This document shows, piece after piece, positions 6,941-64,000 of a DNA stretch of 64,000 nucleotides. Position 1 is the stretch's first letter. Every line of letters begins with the position of its first letter. This DNA is from an uncultured Eubacteriales bacterium (lineage in GTDB: Bacteria > Bacillota > Clostridia > Oscillospirales > CAG-272): assembly GCA_934401725.1 (NCBI GenBank), contig CAKRSS010000001.1, positions 732 through 64,731 of the forward strand. The letters run 5' to 3'. The notes under the pieces are model-generated. The model did no database searches, was not told the origin of the DNA, and saw nothing but the letters and a program-made list of their open reading frames with translations. The position numbers were made by a program, and so were the translations under genes.

Positions 6941-8380
6941 ATGGCACAGGATAAAAAAATGGTAGAGCAGATCACGTCCATGGACGTTGACTTTGCTCAG
7001 TGGTACACCGATGTGGTGAAGAAGGCAGAGCTTGCCGACTATTCGGGCGTAAAGGGGTGTATGGTCATCCGTCCCTACGGATACGCTATCTGGGAGAACA
7101 TTCAGCGCGACCTCGACGCGAGATTCAAGCGTCTGGGGCACGAGAATGTCTACATGCCCATGTTCATCCCCGAGTCGCTGCTCCAGAAGGAGAAGGATCA
7201 CGTTGAGGGCTTTGCGCCCGAGTGCGCGGTCGTGACTATGGGCGGGCAGACGCAGCTTTCCGAGCGTCTGATTGTGCGTCCGACGTCCGAGACGCTGTTC
7301 TGCGAGCACTACAAGAACATAATTCACTCCTACCGCGACCTGCCCAAGCTGTACAACCAGTGGTGCAACGTCGTGCGCTGGGAGAAGACGACGCGTCCCT
7401 TCCTGCGTACCTCCGAGTTTTTGTGGCAGGAGGGTCACACCATGCACGAGACGGAGGAAGAGGCGCGCGAGGAGACGCTGCGCATGCTCAAGTGCTACGA
7501 GGACTTCTACCGCGAGTCGCTGGCGATTCCGGCGGTTGTCGGTCGCAAGACCGAGAAGGAGAAGTTTGCGGGTGCGATGGAGACCTACACCATCGAGCCG
7601 ATGATGCACAACGGTGTTGCGCTTCAGGGCGGAACGTCGCACTATTTCGGCGACGGATTTGCGCGCGCGTTTGACATCACCTACACCGACCGTGAGAACA
7701 AGGTGCGCTATCCGCATCAGACGTCGTGGGGGGTATCGACGCGCATGATAGGCGCCATTATCATGACGCACGGCGACGACAACGGACTTATTCTGCCGCC
7801 TGCCGTAGCACCCATACAGGTTGCTGTCATTCCGATTGCGCAGCACAAGGAGGGCGTGCTTGAGGCAGCCGGCAGTCTGCGCGAGCGGCTTGCGGACAGG
7901 TTCCGTGTCAAGCTGGACGACAGTGAAAATTCGACCGGCTGGAAGTTTTCACAGTACGAGATGAAGGGAGTACCGGTTCGTCTGGAGCTGGGGCCGCGCG
8001 ACATTGAGTCGGGCTCCTGCGTGCTTGTCAGCCGTGTGACGCGCGAGAAGGTAGTTGTTTCGCTTGACAACATCGATGAGGCGGTTGCCGAGGCTCTGGC
8101 ACGCGTTCACGACGAGCTTTACGAGCGCGCGCTTTCCAATCTTCACAACCGCACTCACGACGCGCATTCCTACGAAGAGTTCCTTGACATTGCCGAGAAG
8201 CAGTCCGGCTTTATCCGTGCCATGTGGTGCGGTGACTCCGCATGCGAGGACAAGCTCAAGGATGTGACCGGCGGTGTCAAGTCGCGCTGCATACCCTTCA
8301 GCGAGGATCACATCTCCGACGTCTGCGTCTGCTGCGGCAAGCCCGCCAAGCACATGGTCGTCTGGGGGAGACAGTATTAA
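6941..8380 (+). CDS. proS: proline--tRNA ligase (archaeal/eukaryote-like type)
   Basis: The 479-aa product reads [35 protein letters not shown]...RPTSET...WGVSTRMIG and ends with a C-terminal Zn-like CVCCGKPA. Confidence 0.95.
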
Positions 8381-9006
8381 GGGAAGTTCCGCCGTTTGCG
8401 GGCGGTCAGCGCGGGGGATTCCGTGCTCTGCGGAGCACGGCCAGCGCTACGCGGCGCTGGACCCGCGCCGCCTCCCCAAAGGCGGGCGAAACTTTCACAA
8501 ATTTGGGCGAGTTAAAGTCTGCGAACGGACGTGACGTACGGCTTTGGGCGTTTAAGTGCAGGCGTTGCGGCATCACGCAATAGACCAGCACCGCCCTGCT
8601 TCGCGTCCGGTGCCCATTCGGGACAGGGGAAGGACGTTTGTATAGCATGTCCTGTGCGCTGTCGCGCGAAAAGTTAGTCCGCCTGCGGCGCATGGGGGCC
8701 CGTTGCGCGCTGACCGCCGCAGGCGGGGTATCTTTCCCGCGGTAGCGCACCGGACGCGAAGCAGGGCGGTGCTGAACTATAACGTGATGCCGTATCGCAC
8801 GCACTTAAACGCCCAAAAACGACGTCCCGGTATGCCAAAGATTCTGACCCGCCCATTTTTGAAAGTTTTTGCGGGTTCTTAGGGAGCTTTTTTCAAAAAG
8901 CTCCCTAAGCGGGGTTCGGGGCAGAGCCCCGAGAACAATTGGTTCTCGCTTGCTTCATTCCGTCGTCCCGCCCCCTTGGTGTGGTTCGGGGCAGAGCCCC
9001 GAGAAA
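8381..9006. repeat. composite multi-hairpin intergenic repeat element, copy 1 (contains a foldback insertion)
   Basis: It shares a 33/33-nt block (8487-8519) and a 30/33-nt block (8843-8875) with the reverse complement of 51360-51392 and 51285-51317. It also shares the homologous hairpins 8421-8440, 8441-8460, 8468-8485, 8878-8909, 8917-8931 and 8987-9001. Confidence 0.85.
8543..8817. repeat. long imperfect inverted repeat (71-nt arms, 63/71 complementary) around a 133-nt centre
   Basis: The arms are 8543-8613 and 8747-8817 and align ungapped. The centre holds a perfect 12-bp stem, 8669-8680/8715-8726. Confidence 0.9.
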
Positions 9007-9049
9007 AGCCACTTTGGACGCTGGCGGAATAATTATTTAGGAGGTAGTC

Positions 9050-10180
9050 GTGAGGCGGTTCGGAGATATTGCGCGGGAGACGCTGAGCAACATCCGGCGG
9101 ATGGATTTTGCGCTGCTGGCGGCTACTTCGGCGCTGTCGCTGGCGAGCATTCTGACGCTGGCCGGCGGGTATTCGTCATTTGGAGTGAAGCGGATAGTCA
9201 TGCAGCTCGGCGCGACGTGCGTCGGTCTTGTCTTAATGCTGCTTATCGCGTCGATAGACTATCGCGTGATTGCGCAGAAGCTGGGCGTGGTCATATACGG
9301 CGCGTCTCTGCTTTTGCTCGTCGTGACGCTGATATTCGGCACGAGCGAGGGCGAGAATAAGAGCTGGCTCTACCTGCCGCTCATACCGTTCGGCATACAG
9401 CCGTCCGAGTTTATAAAAGCGTCGCTGCTGCTGACGTTTTCGTACCATTTGTACCGTGTCCGGACGCAGATAAACCGCCCGCTTGTGCTGCTGACGCTGC
9501 TCGCACATATAGGCGGGTACGTCGGGCTGATACTGCTTTCCGGCGACCTTGGCGTGGCGCTGGTCTACCTCGGAATATGCGTCGTCATGCTGTTCTGCGC
9601 GGGACTTTCCATGTGGTACTTCGTCGGCGGGGCAGGGGTGTTTGCGCTCGCCGCGCCGCTCGGCTGGAAGCTGCTGCGCGAGGATCAAAAGGCGCGGATA
9701 CTCGTCGGCTTCAACCCCGATATCGACCCGCTCGGCAAGGGCTATCAGCCGATAAAGAGCCGATCGTCGGTCGCGAACGGCGGTATTTTCGGACGCGGCA
9801 TGTTCGGCGGGAGCGTTTATAAAACATACGCCGCCTCACATACCGACTTCATTTTCGGCACGTTCTGCGAGAAATTCGGCCTCGTCGGCGCGCTGGCGGT
9901 AGTGGGACTGCTCGTGTTCATCGTGCTGCGCGTCGTCAAGCTGGCGCGCTCCTGCCGCGGCGACTGCGGAACCTACATCTGCGCCGGATTTGCCGGAATG
10001 ATAGTGGTGCAGTCGATTGAAAACATCGGAATGTGCCTCGGCATGCTGCCGGTTGTCGGCATCACACTGCCATATATGAGCTACGGCGGCTCGTCCGTGC
10101 TCGCCATATACATCATAACCGGCGTCGTGCAGAGCGTCGCGGTGCATCGCAACCGCTACCATGTGGCAGATAATTATTGA
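9050..10180 (+). CDS. FtsW/RodA/SpoVE (SEDS) family cell-wall polymerase
   Basis: The product is multi-TM and shows GYQPIKSRSSVANGGIFGRG, HTDFIFGTFCEKFG and LPVVGITLPYMSYGGSS. A GTG start follows AGGAGG. Confidence 0.85.
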   Translation: MRRFGDIARETLSNIRRMDFALLAATSALSLASILTLAGGYSSFGVKRIVMQLGATCVGLVLMLLIASIDYRVIAQKLGVVIYGASLLLLVVTLIFGTSEGENKSWLYLPLIPFGIQPSEFIKASLLLTFSYHLYRVRTQINRPLVLLTLLAHIGGYVGLILLSGDLGVALVYLGICVVMLFCAGLSMWYFVGGAGVFALAAPLGWKLLREDQKARILVGFNPDIDPLGKGYQPIKSRSSVANGGIFGRGMFGGSVYKTYAASHTDFIFGTFCEKFGLVGALAVVGLLVFIVLRVVKLARSCRGDCGTYICAGFAGMIVVQSIENIGMCLGMLPVVGITLPYMSYGGSSVLAIYIITGVVQSVAVHRNRYHVADNY

Positions 10181-25192: not shown

Positions 25193-25294
25193 CATGAGGC
25201 GCCACCGCGCGACACACGAATTGCGCGGTGGTGCCATAAAATGCCCGAGCGAGTTAATTTATTTCCACCGGAACGAATTTTTGAAAAAATTCTA

Positions 25295-25323
25295 TTGACA
25301 AGCGGCGGAGATTGATGTATAAT
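25295..25323 (+). promoter_or_regulatory. perfect-consensus promoter TTGACA-17-TATAAT upstream of rpsU
   Basis: The hexamers are at 25295-25300 and 25318-25323. Confidence 0.6.
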
Positions 25324-25384
25324 ACTAAAGTAAATTTGTCGAGAAGCTCAAAGCTCTGACTGCAACCGGAGGGAGGGAAAAAGA

Positions 25385-25561
25385 ATGGCAGAAGTTAAGC
25401 TGAAGGAAGGCGAAACCCTTGATAGCGCTCTCCGTCGCTTTAAGCGTCAGGTTGCCCGCACGGGTGTCCTTGCCGAGCTCCGTAAGAGAGAGCACTATGA
25501 AAAGCCCAGTGTAAAGCGCAAGAAAAAGTCCGAAGCGGCCAGAAAGCGTAAGTACAAATAA
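25385..25561 (+). CDS. rpsU: 30S ribosomal protein S21
   Basis: My own translation gives [58 protein letters not shown] (58 aa). The gene is below the ORF-track cutoff. A GGAGGGAGG RBS is present. Confidence 0.9.
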
Positions 25562-25597
25562 TCCATTAGTGTGCAAGCCCTATGGGATTGCGGTTGA

Positions 25598-25640
25598 GGC
25601 GGTATCACAGCTCAGGCTGTCGTGCCGCCTTTTCTGTTTT
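25598..25640 (+). terminator. Rho-independent terminator after rpsU
   Basis: The stem GGCGG..CACAGC-TCAG-GCTGTC..CCGCC is followed by TTTTCTGTTTT. Confidence 0.6.
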
Positions 25641-25671
25641 GCCACGTGGGCTGAGACAACGCGGGCGGGTT

Positions 25672-25741
25672 TAAAAAACATGGGCACGGAGTGCCCATGT
25701 AAAAAAGTTGATTTGAAAGCGCGGTGCACCGCGCTTTTTTG
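25672..25741 (-). terminator. two hairpin terminators downstream of ldh
   Basis: AAAGCGCGGTG/CACCGCGCTTT (25716-25737) and CATGGGCAC-GGAG-TGCCCATG (25679-25699) are both flanked by A/T runs. The first is also usable on the + strand. Confidence 0.5.
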
Positions 25742-25747
25742 TCTGCC

Positions 25748-39613: not shown

Positions 39614-39682
39614 CCTGAACTAACGTTTTTACCAAACTTCATTCCAACCCGCATACTTCTAAATCCATTATTGCCCCCGCTT

Positions 39683-39752
39683 CAAAAGTTTTGCGGGTTC
39701 TCAGGGGGCTTTTCCAAAAGCCCCCTGAGCGGGGGCCGGGGCAGCGCCCCAG
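39683..39752. repeat. partial copy of the multi-hairpin repeat (right-hand module only)
   Basis: CAAAAGTTTTGCGGGTTCTCAGGGGGCTTTTCCAAAAGCCCCCTGAGCGGGGGCCGGGGCAGCGCCCC matches 8862-8931 and the reverse complement of 51191-51293. Confidence 0.8.
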
Positions 39753-39776
39753 AAACTATCAAGGAGGACAAAACCG

Positions 39777-49026: not shown

Positions 49027-51183
49027 ATGGACATTATTGCTGCATTGGCACAGGAATTCAAGCTCGACCGCGGGCAGGTCGAGCGCACGGTCGGGCTCAT
49101 TGACGAGGGCAACACCATTCCGTTTATTGCCCGTTACCGCAAGGAGGTCACAGGCTCGCTTGACGACACCGTTCTGCGCGACCTTGACGACCGCCTGACC
49201 TACCTGCGCAACATCGAGAAGCGCAAGGAGGAGGTCAAGGGGCTTATCGACGCGCAGGGCAAGCTGACCGACGAGCTTATCGCCGCCATCGACGCGGCCA
49301 AGACCATAACCGAGGTGGACGACATTTACCGTCCCTACCGTCCCAAGCGTAAGACGCGCGCTTCCGTCGCGCGCGAGCGCGGACTGGAGCCGCTGGCCGA
49401 GCTCATCATGGCGCAGCAGCCGTCCTACGACCCGCCGCTGACGACTGTCGCGGAGGGCTACGTCGACGAGGAGAAGGGAGTCGCAAGTGCCGACGCGGCG
49501 CTCGCCGGCGCTATGGACATCATAGCCGAGGACGTCTCGGACAACGCCGACTTCCGCAAGACCATCCGTTCGCTCACGTGGGACGACGGCGTGCTCTGCT
49601 CGACAGGCAGCGGCGACTCGGTCTACACGCAGTATTACGAGTACGCCGAGAAGCTCAAGAAGATTCCCGGCCACCGCATCCTCGCTATCAACCGCGGCGA
49701 GAAGGAGGAGTTCCTCAAGGTGACGCTGACCGCGCCGCGCGAGCTGATACTCAAATATCTCGGTCACAAGCTGGTGAGCGAGCCGTCCTCGCCCGCCGTG
49801 ACCTACATCCGCGCCGCCATTGAGGACGGCTACGACCGCCTCATTGCGCCGAGTGTCGAGCGCGAGATACGCAACGACATGTTCGACAGCGCGAGCGAGG
49901 GTGCTATCAAGCTGTTCTCGGTCAATCTTCACAACCTGCTCATGCAGTCGCCGCTCAAGGGCAAGACGGTGCTCGGCTTCGACCCCGGCTACCGTACCGG
50001 CTGCAAGCTGGCCGTTGTCGACAAGACGGGCAAGGTGCTTGACACGGCTGTCATTTACCCCACCAAACCACAAGAGCGCATCGAGGAGAGCGGCCGCGTT
50101 GTGACGCGCCTCATCCGCAAGTACGGCGTGAATGTCATTGCCATCGGCAACGGCACGGCCTCCAAGGAGAGCGAGATTTTCATCGCGAACCTGCTCAAGT
50201 CCATCCCCGAGGACGTCAAATACGTCATGGTCAGCGAGGCGGGGGCGTCGGTCTACTCGGCGTCCAAGCTCGGTGCGGACGAGTTCCCGGATTTCGACGT
50301 GACTCAGCGCTCGGCTGTTTCCATCGCGCGCCGCCTTCAGGACCCGCTCGCGGAGCTGGTCAAGATCGACCCCAAGTCGATAGGCGTGGGGCAGTATCAG
50401 CACGACATGAAGCCGGCGCGGCTTGACGACGCGCTGACCGGCGTAGTTGAGGACTGCGTCAACGCGGTCGGAATCGACCTGAACACTGCGTCGCACTCGC
50501 TGCTGGCCTACATTTCCGGTATAAACGCGACCTGCGCCAAGAACATAGTCAAGTATCGCGAGGAGAACGGCGAGTTCACCAGTCGCGCGCAGATACTCAA
50601 GGTGCCCAAGATCGGCGCGAAGGCGTTCGAGCAGTGCGCGGGCTTTCTCCGCGTGCCCGGCAGCTCCGAAATACTCGACAACACCGGCGTTCACCCCGAG
50701 TCCTACGCGGCGGCGCGCGGACTGCTCGAGATGTTCGGTTACAGCGAGCAGGATGTCAAAGACGGCAAGCTGACGCTGCTTTCCGAGAAGGTGAAAATCA
50801 AGGGTACGGCCAAGGTTGCGGAGAAGCTCGGCGTCGGCGAGCCGACGCTTGTGGACATTATCGGCGAGCTCGAGAAGCCCGGCCGCGACGTGCGTGACAG
50901 TCTGCCGCCTCCCGAGTTGCGCGACGACATTCTCGACATGAGCGACCTCAAGGAGGGCATGATTCTCAAGGGAACCGTCCGCAACGTTATCGATTTCGGT
51001 GCGTTCGTCGACATCGGCGTGCATCAGGACGGACTCGTACACGTCTCGCAGCTGTCCGAGCGCTTCGTGAAGCACCCCTCCGAGGTCGTTTCGGTCGGCG
51101 ACGTAGTGAACGTCAAAGTCCTCGGAGTCGACATGCATAAAAAGAAAATCTCCCTGTCAATGAAGGGCGTAAAGCAGAACTGA
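49027..51183 (+). CDS. tex: Tex-like transcription accessory protein (YqgF and S1 domains)
   Basis: Translation shows VGLIDEGNTIPFIARYRKE...VLGFDPGYRTGCKLAVVD... and a C-terminal S1 domain GTVRNVIDFGAFVDIG. Confidence 0.9.
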   Translation: MDIIAALAQEFKLDRGQVERTVGLIDEGNTIPFIARYRKEVTGSLDDTVLRDLDDRLTYLRNIEKRKEEVKGLIDAQGKLTDELIAAIDAAKTITEVDDIYRPYRPKRKTRASVARERGLEPLAELIMAQQPSYDPPLTTVAEGYVDEEKGVASADAALAGAMDIIAEDVSDNADFRKTIRSLTWDDGVLCSTGSGDSVYTQYYEYAEKLKKIPGHRILAINRGEKEEFLKVTLTAPRELILKYLGHKLVSEPSSPAVTYIRAAIEDGYDRLIAPSVEREIRNDMFDSASEGAIKLFSVNLHNLLMQSPLKGKTVLGFDPGYRTGCKLAVVDKTGKVLDTAVIYPTKPQERIEESGRVVTRLIRKYGVNVIAIGNGTASKESEIFIANLLKSIPEDVKYVMVSEAGASVYSASKLGADEFPDFDVTQRSAVSIARRLQDPLAELVKIDPKSIGVGQYQHDMKPARLDDALTGVVEDCVNAVGIDLNTASHSLLAYISGINATCAKNIVKYREENGEFTSRAQILKVPKIGAKAFEQCAGFLRVPGSSEILDNTGVHPESYAAARGLLEMFGYSEQDVKDGKLTLLSEKVKIKGTAKVAEKLGVGEPTLVDIIGELEKPGRDVRDSLPPPELRDDILDMSDLKEGMILKGTVRNVIDFGAFVDIGVHQDGLVHVSQLSERFVKHPSEVVSVGDVVNVKVLGVDMHKKKISLSMKGVKQN

Positions 51184-51185
51184 GG

Positions 51186-51465
51186 TTTTTCGGGGCGCTG
51201 CCCCGAACCTCGCTCAGGGGACGCGTCTCGGGGCGCTGCCCCGAACCCCACCAAGGGGGCTTTTTGAAAAAAGCCCCCTTGGATCCCGCAAAAACTTTTA
51301 AAAAAGGGCGTGTCAGAGTCTGAGGGACGCCGGGATGGGTGGTTTTCGGGCGTCCCAATGACTTTAACTCGCCCAAATTTGTGAAAGTTTCGTCCGCCTT
51401 TGGGGCGGCGGCACGGATCCAACGCCGTGTGGCGTTGGCCGCCGCCCGCAGGCGGCGGAATCCCC
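51186..51465. repeat. multi-hairpin intergenic repeat element, copy in inverted orientation and without the foldback insertion
   Basis: The reverse complement aligns module-by-module with 8411-8542 plus 8818-9006. Hairpins are at 51191-51205, 51229-51243, 51251-51282, 51324-51356, 51394-51408, 51419-51438 and 51439-51458. Confidence 0.85.
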
Positions 51466-51537
51466 TTTACTGTCTTAATATATTAAGAAAAGCGCGACTG
51501 CAAAGTGTTCGTCATGACCGCAAAATACGTGCTGTTG

Positions 51538-57233: not shown

Positions 57234-58588
57234 CTACCGTTTCGTTTCCCGGACTCGGAATCGGCGAGTTTACCATGGACAAGGTCGCGCTGGCGTTCAC
57301 CATCTTCGGCAAACCCGTGGAGATCCGCTGGTACGGAATTATTATTACGCTGGGCATAATTTTAGCCATTCTTTACGCGCTCATGCGCTCAAAGCAGGAG
57401 GGCATCTCGACCGACGACCTGCTTGACATAGGCATTTTCGCTATCATTTTCGCCATCGTCGGCGCGCGCATTTACTACGTGCTGACTTACGGCATCTCAA
57501 ACTTCATCGTGCATGACGCCGAGGGCAAGGTTCGCGCGTGGGACAGCTTTGTAAACATCATCGCCGTCTGGAACGGCGGAATCGCCATTTACGGCGCCAT
57601 AATCGCAGGCGGCATAACTGTTTATCTTGTTTGCCGTCACAAAAAGATAAAATGCACCCGCGCGTTTGATGCAATTGCGCCCGCTGTGATGATAGGTCAG
57701 ATACTCGGGCGCTGGGGAAACTTCGTCAACGGCGAGGCGCATGGCGGCATTGTCAACTCGTCGAGCCCGCTGTACTTCCTCCGCATGGGTCTGCTTCCCA
57801 ACGAGGACAGCCTCACGAGAATGTACTACTACCACCCGACCTTCCTTTATGAGTCGGTCTGGAATCTCATCGGCTTCTTAATCATCAACGCGCTCTACAA
57901 AAAGAAAAAGTTCGACGGCCAGGTGTTCCTTGAGTACATCACGTGGTACGGCTTCGGGCGCATGTTCATCGAGGGACTGCGCACGGACAGCCTGTACATC
58001 GGCGTTTTCCGCGTGTCGCAGCTGGTGGGGTTTGCCTGCTTTGTCGTCGGCGGGGCGCTGCTCGTCCGCGGTCTCATACTCGCCAAGCGCGCCGAATGCC
58101 TGACGCAGGACTACGAGCCCGTCTACAAGCGCTTTATCAAGCAGAAGCCGGTCGTGAAGACGGCAGTCGCCGGAACTGCGCAGGCGGAGTCGCCCGTGCA
58201 GCCAGAGACGACAGATAAAGCCGACAGCTCAGAGCAGTCCGAGGCCGACGCGACCGAGCCGGAGACCGCGAAAAAAACGGAGACCATCGCAGAAAAGCCG
58301 GAAACCACGGAGTCAACTGAGACCATCGCAGAAAAGCCGGAAACCACGGAGTCAACTGAGACCATCGCAGAAAAGCCGGAAACCACGGAGTCAATGGAGA
58401 CCGTTGCAGAAAAGCCTGAGACCGCAGAGTCTGCGAAGACCTCCGAGCCCTCAGATCCCCGGAAGCCGGAGCCAACCTCCGATAGCCACGCCTACACAGC
58501 CCCCGCGTCAGATAACGCTCCCGCCGACACCGCCTCCGCTGACGCCGCGGCGGCAGATTCCACCGAGAACGACAAAAATGAGGACTGA
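57230..58588 (+). CDS. lgt: prolipoprotein diacylglyceryl transferase with ~165-aa acidic repeat-containing C-terminal tail
   Basis: The Lgt core shows [22 protein letters not shown] and [13 protein letters not shown]. The tail is rich in E/T/P/A/S/D. Confidence 0.85.
58280..58435 (+). repeat. 39-bp in-frame tandem repeat (3 identical units plus 1 degenerate) inside the lgt tail
   Basis: Units start at 58280, 58319, 58358 and 58397. They encode [13 protein letters not shown] x3 and then [13 protein letters not shown]. Confidence 0.95.
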
Positions 58589-63810: not shown

Positions 63811-64000
63811 GCGAGTCCCGAATCCCGGCGCACGCACACGGTGAGAAAACGGCAGCGGCTGGAACCGAGGCCGGTGCCCCGCCTGCCGAGCTTGCCTCAA
63901 CCACCGAGGCCGGTGCCCCGCCTGCCGAGCTTGCTGCAACTACCGAGGCCGGTGCCCCGCTCGCCGAGCTTGCCTCAACTACCGAGGCCGCTCAGCCCGC
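63807..64000 (+). CDS. hypothetical protein with N-terminal 13-aa tandem repeats (3' end outside window)
   Basis: An ATG at 63807 follows GGGAGG and overlaps the previous stop (ATGA). My translation gives MSESRIPAHAHGEKTAAAGTEAGAPPAELASTTEAGAPPAELAATTEAGAPLAELASTTEAAQP... Confidence 0.5.
   Translation, partial: MSESRIPAHAHGEKTAAAGTEAGAPPAELASTTEAGAPPAELAATTEAGAPLAELASTTEAAQP
63864..64000 (+). repeat. 39-bp in-frame tandem repeat (at least 3.5 units, runs off the window)
   Basis: Units start at 63864, 63903, 63942 and 63981. The unit is ACCGAGGCCGGTGCCCCGCCTGCCGAGCTTGCCTCAACC with a few substitutions. Confidence 0.9.

Follow-up and report, generated by a model that had tools for sequence, protein, structure and literature searches.

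What fills the 669-nt gap (positions 8381-9049) between the stop codon of proS and the GTG start codon of an FtsW/RodA/SpoVE-family (SEDS) gene in an uncultured gut Clostridia species? The original prediction for this gap, which lies within a 64-kb stretch of DNA (hereafter the window), described an array of hairpins whose stems covary with those of a second, inverted copy, and left three options open: (i) a structured non-coding RNA (ncRNA), (ii) a REP/MITE-like element, or (iii) a hairpin array recognised by a protein. The evidence favours the second option and disfavours the first. The element in this gap, copy A, is probably one of many non-coding, non-autonomous, lineage-specific repeats of the general REP/BIME/REPIN/MITE kind. 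On this reading it is a selfish, hairpin-rich repeat inserted between genes of a single species, and not a conserved RNA gene.

Modular architecture and distribution of the repeat

Copy A is built as an "onion" of nested inverted repeats, the modules of which are listed in Table 1. An independent contig from a Hadza gut sample (L132) carries it at the same site with 99.7% identity. All sequence statements of the original prediction were borne out, apart from the extent of the second copy: the inverted recurrence proposed at 51186-51465 is real, but this copy (copy B) extends to about 51180, so that the TGA stop codon of tex (51181-51183) falls inside its terminal hairpin. The L block of copy A is identical to the reverse complement of its counterpart in copy B at 33 of 33 positions, where no chance match is expected, and the R blocks agree at 30 of 33. 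Across the larger arms, complementarity is 85% between 8414-8519 and 51360-51465 and 84% between 8825-8934 and 51226-51335. The L and R blocks are, as had been proposed, imperfect inverted repeats of each other; the suggestion that they are unpaired did not hold, as they pair with each other in the predicted fold.

Table 1. Modules of the three family copies in the window, with their coordinates
Feature	Position	Strand	Remarks
Copy A, long form of the mosaic palindromic element	8381-9006	+	Between the proS stop (8378-8380) and the SEDS RBS/GTG (9040-9052)
Left-arm tandem unit, partial first copy	8381-8412	+	GGGAAGTTCCG, hairpin CCGCCGtttgCGGGCGG, TCAGCGC; from comparison of tabulated units
Left-arm unit	8414-8446	+	GGGGATTCCG-N5-TGCG-N5'-CGGCCAGCG; contains H1 (8421-8440)
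Hairpin H2	8441-8460	+	CCAGCGC tacgcg GCGCTGG
Hairpin H3	8466-8488	+	CGCCGCC tccccaaa GGCGGGCG; one G bulged
L block	8487-8519	+	Conserved sequence; imperfect pairing with R block
Left inner arm, long form	8543-8613	+	71 nt; 89% complementary to 8747-8817
Variable centre	8614-8746		Further small palindromes; length and content differ in each copy
Right inner arm, long form	8747-8817	+	Partner of 8543-8613
Segment absent from the 215-nt form (conspecific MAG)	8460-8845		Direct repeat GACCCGC at 8460 and 8846
R block	8843-8875	+	3' end AAAGTTTTTGCGGG; tail common to wider family
Pal, perfect 32-nt palindrome	8878-8909		No U tail behind
REP-like hairpin	8913-8935	+	GGTTCGGGGCAGAGCCCCGAGAA
Right-end partial tandem duplicate	8969-9006	+	Pal right half and second REP-like hairpin
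Copy B, short form, internally deleted	51180-51465	-	42-nt hairpin in place of inner arms and centre
Copy B, left part	51465-51391	-	GGGGATT 51465-51459; H1 51458-51439; H2 51438-51419; H3 51413-51391
Copy B, middle	51392-51285	-	L block 51392-51360; spacer hairpin 51359-51318; R block 51317-51285
Copy B, right part	51282-51180	-	Pal 51282-51251; REP 51247-51228; terminal hairpin 51219-51180, including REP 51209-51190
Copy C, solo right-end module	39681-39755	+	R-block tail, Pal (39700-39729), REP-like hairpin; 85.5 bits

The parent is the long form (0.67 to about 1.2 kb), from which both copy B and a 215-nt allele found in a conspecific strain derive by internal deletion at short repeats or microhomology. 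The inner arms were seen in all long copies. A DUF5711 gene has its start codon 22 nt downstream of copy C, and the window holds no family copy beyond these three sites. In copies A and B the REP-like hairpin is confined to the right end; the window copies are therefore not REP doublets.

Dispersed extragenic copies, adjoining unrelated genes, were found at the three sites in the 64 kb and on conspecific contigs (L001-L003, L132, L134, L137, and L138). Six conspecific contigs end inside an element. Copy A runs in the same direction as its neighbours, copies B and D run in the opposite direction, and the copy in L003 lies between convergent genes. Individual copies have or lack H2, H3, the L block, the inner arms, the centre, the R block, and Pal, and they carry from one to three left-arm units (about 35 nt each, in tandem) and from one to three REP hairpins, some of them degenerate. 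Thus a few recurring modules vary in number and order, which is the hallmark of BIME/BOX-type mosaics.

An exact search of 185,579 species genomes with a 20-mer of the L block gave three matches, each from the same conspecific MAG, and the JGI metagenomes and viral contigs gave none; a blastn search of plasmids and phages with copy A returned nothing. Searches of the literature by sequence string and keyword yielded no account of the family, and we regard it as a previously undescribed, lineage-specific addition to the REP/BIME/REPIN/MITE mosaic palindromic repeats. The right-end module (Pal and the GGTTCGGGGCAGnGCCCCGA hairpin) is common to a wider family found at other metagenome loci, mostly from gut samples. 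Members of this wider family are symmetric, REPIN-like elements of roughly 170-250 nt (a few are longer), in which two right-end modules face each other. Fifteen inverted pairs of REP-like hairpins were identified; in most, the two hairpins are separated by 141-249 nt and each side has an internal Pal hairpin, and four pairs are more widely spaced, by up to 1167 nt. Such inverted pairs flanking a spacer are a feature of the wider family that is absent from copies A and B.

Pairing, covariation and the search for RNA signals

Predicted folding of the element is far above chance (z = -13.5 for copy A and -9.2 for copy B), and the covariation of stems between copies, first proposed from those in the window, persists with eight to nine copies from the source species. 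In these, 97.9% of the cells in the left-arm helices and 97.5% of those in the right arm are paired, with six pairs changed on both sides in the left arm and five in the right. None of 500 shuffles reached the observed covariation score, and slid registers were only 28-65% paired. The swapped H1 stems (CCGTGCTCtgcgGAGCACGG in copy A and CCGCCGCCtgcgGGCGGCGG in copy B), the two versions of the next hairpin (CCAGCGC/GCGCTGG and CCAACGCC/GGCGTTGG), and the three versions of the large palindrome (Pal in Table 1) were all verified. In H1, five of the eight pairs are changed on both sides across copies while the TGCG loop and its closing C-G pair are invariant; the 12 left-arm units comprise six stem variants, five of them fully Watson-Crick and one with a single G·T. 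One H2 pair has changed from G-C to A-T in three copies. Variation in H3 is on one side only, with no compensatory change. In Pal, four of 13 pairs show compensatory change in this species, and in the wider family all 14 do. The local hairpins therefore stay near-perfectly Watson-Crick as their sequence drifts, and the L and R blocks keep their sequence.

The stability of the predicted fold and the compensatory changes in several helices are what a structured ncRNA, whether an independent gene or a cis-acting domain, with hairpins selected as RNA, would be expected to show; the element at site A must also be co-transcribed with proS and the SEDS gene. Several observations nevertheless make this explanation highly unlikely. 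Folding is just as strong on the reverse strand, with -166.0 and -165.9 kcal/mol for the two strands of copy B, and folding as single-stranded DNA gives z = -8.0. Across the Pal helix in 131 family members, Watson-Crick cells number 1085, compared with 28 G·U, 16 A·C, and 26 of other kinds, so that G·U accounts for 2.4% of cells, a frequency near that of A·C and of the other mismatches. Strand-symmetric folding together with this scarcity of G·U points to palindromes at the level of DNA. To these objections are added the empty orthologous sites in sister species and the variation in length and content among conspecific strains, both described below, and the occurrence of copies in both orientations relative to flanking transcription.

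The left arm has some features of its own. Its hairpins carry an invariant C(UGCG)G loop, a UNCG-type tetraloop, and on the left-to-right strand they contain 13 G·U cells against two A·C, features that could be counted in favour of an RNA; these G·U cells come mostly from two columns and from related sequences. Together, the tetraloop and the G·U excess hint at an RNA read from left to right.

Searches for signals of transcription gave little to support an ncRNA. The Rfam scan proposed with the original prediction returned no family match: with Rfam 15, the window had no match at gathering thresholds, positions 8300-9100 at E <= 10 gave only microRNA-type noise, and seven related loci likewise yielded nothing. 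No sigma-70-like promoter was found inside the elements, and copies A and D have no promoter of their own. A promoter-like site on the minus strand (51504-51477) does point into copy B, as an ncRNA might require; however, it sits in flanking DNA that is also found where the element is absent. The terminator scan detected one weak internal site in copy A, below shuffle expectation, and none in copy B, and no T run follows the Pal or REP-like hairpins; canonical U-tailed terminators are present elsewhere in the window, after rpsU at about 25.58-25.75 kb. On these scans a terminator or promoter cassette was also rejected. The 132-aa ORF on the minus strand at 8406-8804 was rejected as a protein-coding gene, its product being Arg-rich and its frame interrupted by stop codons in other copies.

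Whether preserved pairing means that the structure is under selection, as the original prediction argued, is a separate matter. Selection is plausible but not proven, because intrastrand templated repair or exchange between copies can also keep the arms of a DNA palindrome complementary. A stronger form of this argument holds that the element is immobile and its structure unselected, the palindromes having arisen through replication and repair (snap-back synthesis, template switching, quasipalindrome correction, or gene conversion) and built up at gene boundaries. The stems that are nearly all Watson-Crick on both strands, the partial tandem duplicates at both ends, the deletions at short direct repeats, and the divergence of orthologous copies, which is as great as that of paralogous ones, are all consistent with such an origin. 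It leaves unexplained why the same 33-nt L block, inner arms, and R block occur at unrelated loci. Shared blocks at unrelated loci, including junctions that are empty in sister species, require some dispersal, and we consider an immobile origin very unlikely.

Insertion, strain variation and the question of mobility

Copy A is an insertion, since the element is missing from the same gene junctions in sister species. In sister species with 89-90% identical ProS (near-identical homologues standing in for the window's own protein), about 9 nt separate the proS stop codon from the SEDS GTG (60 nt as annotated), compared with 669 nt here. At site B, a species with a 96% identical ATPase retains the UvrB-Tex-ABC synteny with a tex-ABC gap of 216 nt, compared with 506 nt in the window; the site is empty in L140, and its flank TTTACTnTCTTAATATATTAAGA is also found in L139, a locus without the element.

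Conspecific strains differ at occupied sites. The 215-nt allele at site A equals the window copy minus 8460-8845, a deletion between the GACCCGC repeats. At site B, other strains carry the left half of a long form, with the right half missing or the contig ending. Copies D and D', of about 800 and about 1170 nt, occupy one site in strains with 99-100% identical ProS but are only 78% identical across the left 266 nt that align. Orthologous copies are thus as divergent as paralogous ones, which suggests exchange between copies. The centre occurs in either orientation among copies, which brought an invertible switch to mind; the copies differ, however, by nested partial duplications and not by a clean flip, and no recombinase was found near the element. 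No insertion event was detected between otherwise identical strains among those compared. The sequences compared are mostly short-read metagenome contigs in which repeats may be collapsed or chimeric, which calls for caution over the break in synteny in L137 and over the partial copy that ends L134.

The ends of the element bear on how it moved. No target-site duplication, a feature that the original prediction had proposed to look for, was evident at site A or site B relative to the empty sites, a comparison made between species, in which short duplications may be blurred. Terminal inverted repeats are also lacking: copies begin with GGGGATTCCG... on the left and end with ...GCCCCGAAAAACCTCAG on the right, and right ends of the form ...GCCCCGAGAAAA or ...CCTCAG contain no inverse of the left end. 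The inverted symmetry is internal, residing in the L and R blocks and the inner arms. These observations weigh against a classical MITE, in the sense of a DDE-type insertion sequence shortened by deletion, which moves by cut-and-paste or copy-paste via its terminal inverted repeats and leaves target duplications. Such an origin would account for the overall form of the element as a long imperfect inverted repeat, for L and R blocks that keep their sequence as transposase-binding sites do, and for the internally deleted derivatives that are typical of MITEs; in the wider family, moreover, inverted symmetry runs 10-30 nt past the REP hairpins (e.g., GGGGTAAAAGGTC...GACCTTTTACCCC). However, copies A and B do not terminate in inverted repeats, none of the copies in the collected loci has a transposase ORF between its ends, and plasmids and phages gave no match. 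The arms, furthermore, preserve local hairpins and not arm-to-arm complementarity: in L053, for example, the left and right Pal sequences are not complementary to each other. On balance, we judge a classical MITE improbable.

We searched for a mobilising partner. A crude scan for HUH and Y motifs, using an insensitive regular expression on 874 kb (the window plus 140 loci), gave no candidate Y1/HUH-like (RAYT) ORF, and no TnpA or TnpB partner was found. The collected loci, plasmids, and phages held no related autonomous insertion sequence with the same ends, and the collected loci contained neither a longer copy with an internal ORF nor L-type and R-type core pairs more than 253 nt apart. Two segments of 1.05-1.17 kb between inverted REP-like hairpins were considered as autonomous partners and rejected, as they carry ordinary genes (a serine-hydrolase-like and a sugar-kinase-like ORF, their translations judged by eye).

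The position of the elements relative to genes suggests another explanation, that the host has recruited them at gene boundaries for mRNA decay, RNase III processing, ribosome release, gene coupling, or the binding of nucleoid or topology proteins, like some E. coli REP/BIME sequences. In many family members an RBS and start codon follow the outer REP-like hairpin at a distance of 10-50 nt, and in many others this hairpin is 0-25 nt from the stop codon of a convergent gene; by a cruder test (<=90 nt), 18 of 43 strong matches were upstream of a start and 17 near a convergent stop. Copy A begins immediately after the proS stop codon and uncouples genes that are adjacent in sister species, the SEDS gene having a strong RBS of its own, and copy B includes the stop codon of tex. 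However, alleles with and without most of the element coexist within one species, and in these compact genomes any intergenic insertion will abut genes. Host recruitment as the basis of the family therefore appears decidedly improbable.

Interpretation and relationship to known repeat systems

Our preferred reading remains that of a non-autonomous repeat of the REP/BIME/REPIN/MITE kind, and we postulate that an enzyme acting in trans, and recognising ends that form hairpins, spreads or once spread the family. Given the lack of inverted repeats at the extreme ends and of any visible target duplication, this enzyme would most likely act on single-stranded DNA, as do the IS200/IS605 and RAYT enzymes. 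Its requirement for hairpins may be what keeps the stems complementary, possibly assisted by palindrome-templated repair and exchange between copies. Tolerance of the elements presumably reflects their lack of both a promoter and a U-tailed terminator. The site-A copy would have to be transcribed through in the proS-SEDS transcript, and the read-through RNA is predicted to form long hairpins with possible effects on its processing or stability; we would expect such effects to be a side effect of the element and not the reason for its presence.

A more far-reaching proposal is that gut Clostridia carry an undescribed REPIN-like system, defined by a two-hairpin end module (a palindrome of free sequence and the conserved GGTTCGGGGCAGnGCCCCGA hairpin) and copied by a single-strand- or hairpin-specific enzyme, that lands at stop codons and RBSs. 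In the source species it would have expanded into kilobase-long nested fold-backs and acquired a new left end, a tandem series of C(UGCG)G hairpins. If the host also uses these hairpins to form mRNA ends or to uncouple genes, they would constitute a general layer of operon architecture in an abundant uncultured gut lineage. We offer this only tentatively and think it unlikely in its entirety.

The family has practical consequences. It breaks short-read assemblies of the source species, as the truncated conspecific contigs attest, it creates strain-level differences in length at the junctions of housekeeping genes, and it may mark rearrangement breakpoints. It also recommends caution in ncRNA discovery, as palindromic selfish DNA can produce both strong folding scores and real compensatory changes; comparison with empty sites, strand symmetry, and the frequency of wobble pairs serve to separate the two. 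The natural long, short, and empty alleles provide material for testing the effects of hairpins on neighbouring genes.

REP, REPIN, and RAYT systems have been studied mainly in Proteobacteria (REPINs, e.g., in Pseudomonas and enterobacteria), and the present family is a well-delimited example of the REP/REPIN type from uncultured gut Clostridia (Firmicutes/Bacillota). As in those systems, the copies are extragenic, multi-copy, and non-coding, have a short GC-rich REP hairpin at their ends, leave no target duplications, and form complex arrangements and clusters; the wider family likewise consists of two inverted REP-like hairpins around a variable, hairpin-folding spacer. The spacers of REPINs differ in sequence from copy to copy but always form a hairpin (PMC3337134). 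Unlike those of REPINs, the spacers here are much longer (about 140-250 nt across the wider family, 0.28-1.2 kb within the source species), the window copies combine a REP-like hairpin on one side only with an array of different hairpins on the opposite side, and no RAYT gene was recovered by the crude motif scan of 874 kb.

Similar comparisons can be drawn with other mosaic and palindromic repeats. The BIMEs of E. coli and the BOX elements of Streptococcus pneumoniae combine structure-conserved hairpins with sequence-conserved linker blocks, and are intergenic and often co-transcribed. The present family shares with them a small number of module types, variable module number, and partial tandem copies; it has no sequence relationship to either, its modules are nested concentrically instead of standing in a row, and it reaches 1.2 kb. 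Like the Correia elements of Neisseria and the ERIC/IRU elements of enterobacteria, it is non-autonomous and imperfectly palindromic overall, lies beside genes, falls into internally deleted size classes, and is expected to form a long hairpin in co-transcribed RNA, but the 26-bp terminal inverted repeats, TA duplication, and promoter elements of Correia were not found here. With the IS200/IS605-derived PATEs it has in common subterminal hairpins at both ends and the lack of terminal inverted repeats and of target duplication, a combination that fits single-strand, hairpin-guided transposition. It differs from PATEs in that no conserved tetra- or pentanucleotide target lies to the left of the insertions, where the flanks end in TAA, AAA, CAA, TGA, or GTA, and in that its left-end and right-end hairpins are unrelated to each other.

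Anatomy of the element

The element is a lineage-specific, multi-copy, non-coding insertion. Its longest form in the window, copy A, lies in the 669-nt gap (8381-9049) that separates the stop of the class II prolyl-tRNA synthetase gene, proS, from the GTG start of a SEDS gene (FtsW/RodA/SpoVE family), and has the architecture of an onion, with inverted repeats nested within one another. All sequence statements of the original prediction proved correct on re-examination. The block at 8487-8519 (L block) agrees at 33/33 positions with the reverse complement of 51360-51392 (chance expectation, 0 matches), and the block at 8843-8875 (R block) is identical at 30/33 positions to that of 51285-51317; the quoted hairpins and the third palindrome (39700-39729) are likewise where they were reported. 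Each half of the element has an inverted counterpart within 51226-51465, to which it is 84-85% complementary. The conserved blocks had been supposed to be unpaired, but the predicted fold pairs them with each other. Relative to shuffled sequence, both copies are predicted to fold far more stably (z = -13.5 for copy A and -9.2 for copy B).

Features of the element in the window and recurring units in comparison loci
Feature	Location	Strand	Description
Left-arm units	copy A, left end	+	one partial, then one complete; ~35 nt, GGGnnTTCCG-N5-TGCG-N5'-CGGCCAGCG (hairpin H1)
H2 and H3	copy A	+	hairpins to the right of the left-arm units
L block	8487-8519	+	after H2/H3; then a short spacer arm
Left inner arm	copy A	+	71 nt; 89% complementary to its partner arm
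Centre	copy A		133 nt; further small palindromes
Right side	copy A	+	mirror series; its end comprises the four parts listed next
R block	8843-8875	+	
Pal	8878-8909		after the R block; 32-nt perfect palindrome
REP-like hairpin	copy A	+	GGTTCGGGGCAGAGCCCCGA, to the right of Pal
Right-most part	copy A	+	partial tandem duplicate of Pal and REP-like hairpin
Copy B	51180-51465	-	ends as in copy A; a 42-nt hairpin instead of inner arms and centre
Copy C	39681-39755		right-end module alone
Recurring centre units	L132 1880-2080		
Recurring centre units	L134 1700-2130		
Recurring centre units	L003 1060-1130		
Recurring centre units	L001 3480-3530		
Recurring centre units	L137 2860-3050		

At its junctions, copy B agrees in sequence with the outer portions of the long forms, which identifies it as an internally deleted derivative. 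No copies beyond A, B and C were found elsewhere in the 64-kb window. An independent Hadza-gut contig carries a 669-nt allele at site A that is 99.7% identical, which validates the window assembly.

Small palindromic units, among them CTCCCTCCGGGAGGGAG, CCGTAGGGACCGGCGTCCTCGACGG with its complement, and GGCGACCACCGGTCGCC, recur in differing combinations in the variable centres, as if distinct mini-repeat families were nested within the element. The window also contains two arrays of 39-nt tandem repeats, 77-94% identical, at 58257-58412 (four copies) and 63864-63990 (three copies), which are probably 13-residue repeats in coding sequence.

Insertion, drift and internal deletion

An exact 20-mer of the L block was present in one of 185,579 species genomes, and had no exact match in JGI metagenomes or viral contigs. 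The genome is a MAG labelled 'Bulleidia sp.' (GCA_963640785.1; loci L001-L003, L128 and L138), which belongs to the same species as the window because its ProS is 98% identical to the window's; its ABC ATPase is 99% identical. The nearest named relatives by ProS (~90% identity) are Clostridia MAGs and Candidatus Apopatosoma, and the genus label is, on these protein comparisons, probably wrong.

Additional copies were obtained from contigs encoding near-identical ProS or ABC-ATPase proteins (L001-L003, L128, L132-L135, L137 and L138). Among 12 left-arm units, a type seen only in the window species, six stem variants were found (TGCTC/GAGCA, CCGCC/GGCGG, CCGTC/GACGG, CGCTC/GAGCG, CGCGC/GCGCG and CCGTC/GGCGG), five fully Watson-Crick and one with a single G·T, while the TGCG loop was unchanged throughout. 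In alignments, 97.9% of left-arm and 97.5% of right-arm cells are paired, and six and five pairs, respectively, are altered on both sides; the covariation score was reached by none of 500 shuffles, and shifted registers were only 28-65% paired. Since these counts exceed those of shuffles and shifted registers, the proposed covariation of stems between copies is confirmed.

Empty sites were found in relatives. Sister species, whose ProS is 89-90% identical, have only ~9 nt from the stop of proS to the SEDS start (TAAtagagcacaGTG; the annotated gap is 60 nt), and no separate strong SEDS RBS is visible (L129 4940-4953, L131 4080-4093 and L136); the SEDS gene of the window species has a strong RBS to itself, TAGGAGG, downstream of the insertion. 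At site B, a species with a 96% identical ATPase retains UvrB–Tex–ABC synteny with a tex–ABC gap of 216 nt, as against 506 nt in the window, and the flank TTTACTnTCTTAATATATTAAGA that adjoins the left end of copy B is also present at a locus without the element. Comparison of filled and empty sites revealed no target duplication at site A or site B. Copy B provides the tex stop codon, within its terminal hairpin.

Two features adjoining left ends were also observed. Directly beside that of copy B is an AT-rich palindrome, CTTAATATATTAAG (window 51466-51490), which relatives without the element keep upstream of the ABC-ATPase gene (L139; L140 has a variant). It could serve as an operator or an insertion target, or belong to the promoter region. 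At another site, in a conspecific strain, a near-consensus promoter (TTGACA-17-TATGAT; L132 2446-2523; L134 2430-2480) drives a divergent 78-aa gene, and its -35 box adjoins the left end of copy D.

Conspecific strains differ in the element itself, whose turnover is rapid: sequence drifts but the hairpins persist, and internal deletions bring about its decay. In one MAG (L128 3597-3811), site A holds a 215-nt allele that equals the window copy minus 8460-8845, and the endpoints of this deletion coincide with a 7-nt direct repeat, GACCCGC (window 8460 and 8846). A third strain carries a variant at site A that is 87% identical and has three left units. Elsewhere, a single site is occupied in two strains (ProS 99-100% identical) by copies of ~800 and ~1170 nt that share only 78% identity over the aligned left 266 nt. 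At site B, other strains have the left half of the long form, with the right half absent or the contig stopping. Six conspecific contigs terminate within an element, which is the behaviour expected of multi-copy repeats. The comparison sequences are mostly short-read metagenome contigs, in which repeats may be collapsed or chimeric; this applies to a partial copy at the end of L134 and to a synteny break in L137 (2754-3500), from another conspecific MAG, where the ABC-ATPase gene is preceded by a long-form left half and then a response-regulator gene, not tex, an arrangement that reflects either a rearrangement with its breakpoint in the repeat or chimerism of the contig.

RNA gene or DNA repeat

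That the element is a novel structured RNA is unlikely. Rfam gave no match for the window, for the element searched at E ≤ 10 or for related loci, and neither a sigma-70-like promoter nor a U-tailed terminator was found within the elements. Orientation relative to neighboring genes is not fixed: copy A shares their direction, copies B and D oppose it, and convergent genes flank the copy in L003. The two strands of copy B fold equally well (forward, -166.0; reverse, -165.9 kcal/mol), and the fold as single-stranded DNA is equally exceptional (z = -8.0). Only the left arm hints at an RNA with a single reading direction: its invariant C(UGCG)G loop is a UNCG-type tetraloop and the left-to-right strand has 13 G·U versus two A·C cells, a count drawn from few, related sequences and two columns. 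A 132-aa ORF within copy A was discarded as a gene, being interrupted by stop codons in other copies.

Elsewhere in the window, at 25290-25745, rpsU (ribosomal protein S21) has a consensus TTGACA-17-TATAAT promoter, and beyond the gene stand two or three U-tailed hairpins of the canonical terminator type (25.58-25.75 kb), in contrast to the tail-less hairpins of the element.

The site A element must be read through for SEDS expression, and a predicted side effect at the RNA level is therefore likely there.

The wider family and a proposed mode of spread

With one loop base left free, the REP-like hairpin matched more than 120 metagenome loci, many of which have the hairpin alone and, the DNA being GC-rich, may match by chance. 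Dozens of loci carry AAAGTTyTTGsGG and a Pal-like hairpin ahead of it; judged by contig names and sample prefixes, most of these appear to come from metagenomes of the human gut and of other gut-type samples. A covariance model of this two-hairpin module gave 161 matches from 100 sources, and in the alignment fitted to it 97.8% of cells are paired, with double changes in 21 of 21 pairs. Across 131 distinct members, the Pal helix comprises 1085 Watson-Crick, 28 G·U, 16 A·C and 26 other cells; Pal helices are near-perfect DNA palindromes and lack the abundance of wobble pairs that marks functional RNA helices.

The wider-family element is symmetric and usually ~170-250 nt long (a few are longer), running from inverted REP' and Pal' through a ...CAAGAACTTTCAC... 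block, a variable centre and a ...GTGAAAGTTCTTG... block to Pal and REP. Each arm keeps its local hairpin, and the arms do not complement each other. The outer hairpin is often placed 10-50 nt ahead of an RBS with its start codon, or else 0-25 nt from a convergent gene's stop; by a cruder test (≤90 nt) on strong hits, 18/43 precede an RBS/start and 17/43 are near a convergent stop. In two members (L067 292-404 and L110 4964-5065), one or two extra hairpins are inserted within the Pal stem, so nested hairpin growth occurs in other organisms too.

The element is a new family in a known class, the mosaic palindromic intergenic repeats (REP/BIME/REPIN/MITE). Because its extreme ends are not inverted repeats, no duplication was observed and hairpins stand at both ends, the closest model is single-strand, hairpin-guided mobilization by an enzyme acting in trans, as modeled on IS200/IS605 and on REPINs with RAYT, and we infer that it may spread in this mode. 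Complementarity of the arms is probably aided, too, by repair templated within palindromes and by exchange among copies; these processes would account for orthologous copies being as divergent as paralogous ones. Membership among the REPINs is not established, as the collected loci (874 kb) yielded no HUH/Y-motif ORF for a mobilizing enzyme and no long copy with an internal ORF. REPIN spacers differ in sequence in every copy and always form hairpins (PMC3337134), the same phenomenon as the divergent yet paired stems of the original prediction.
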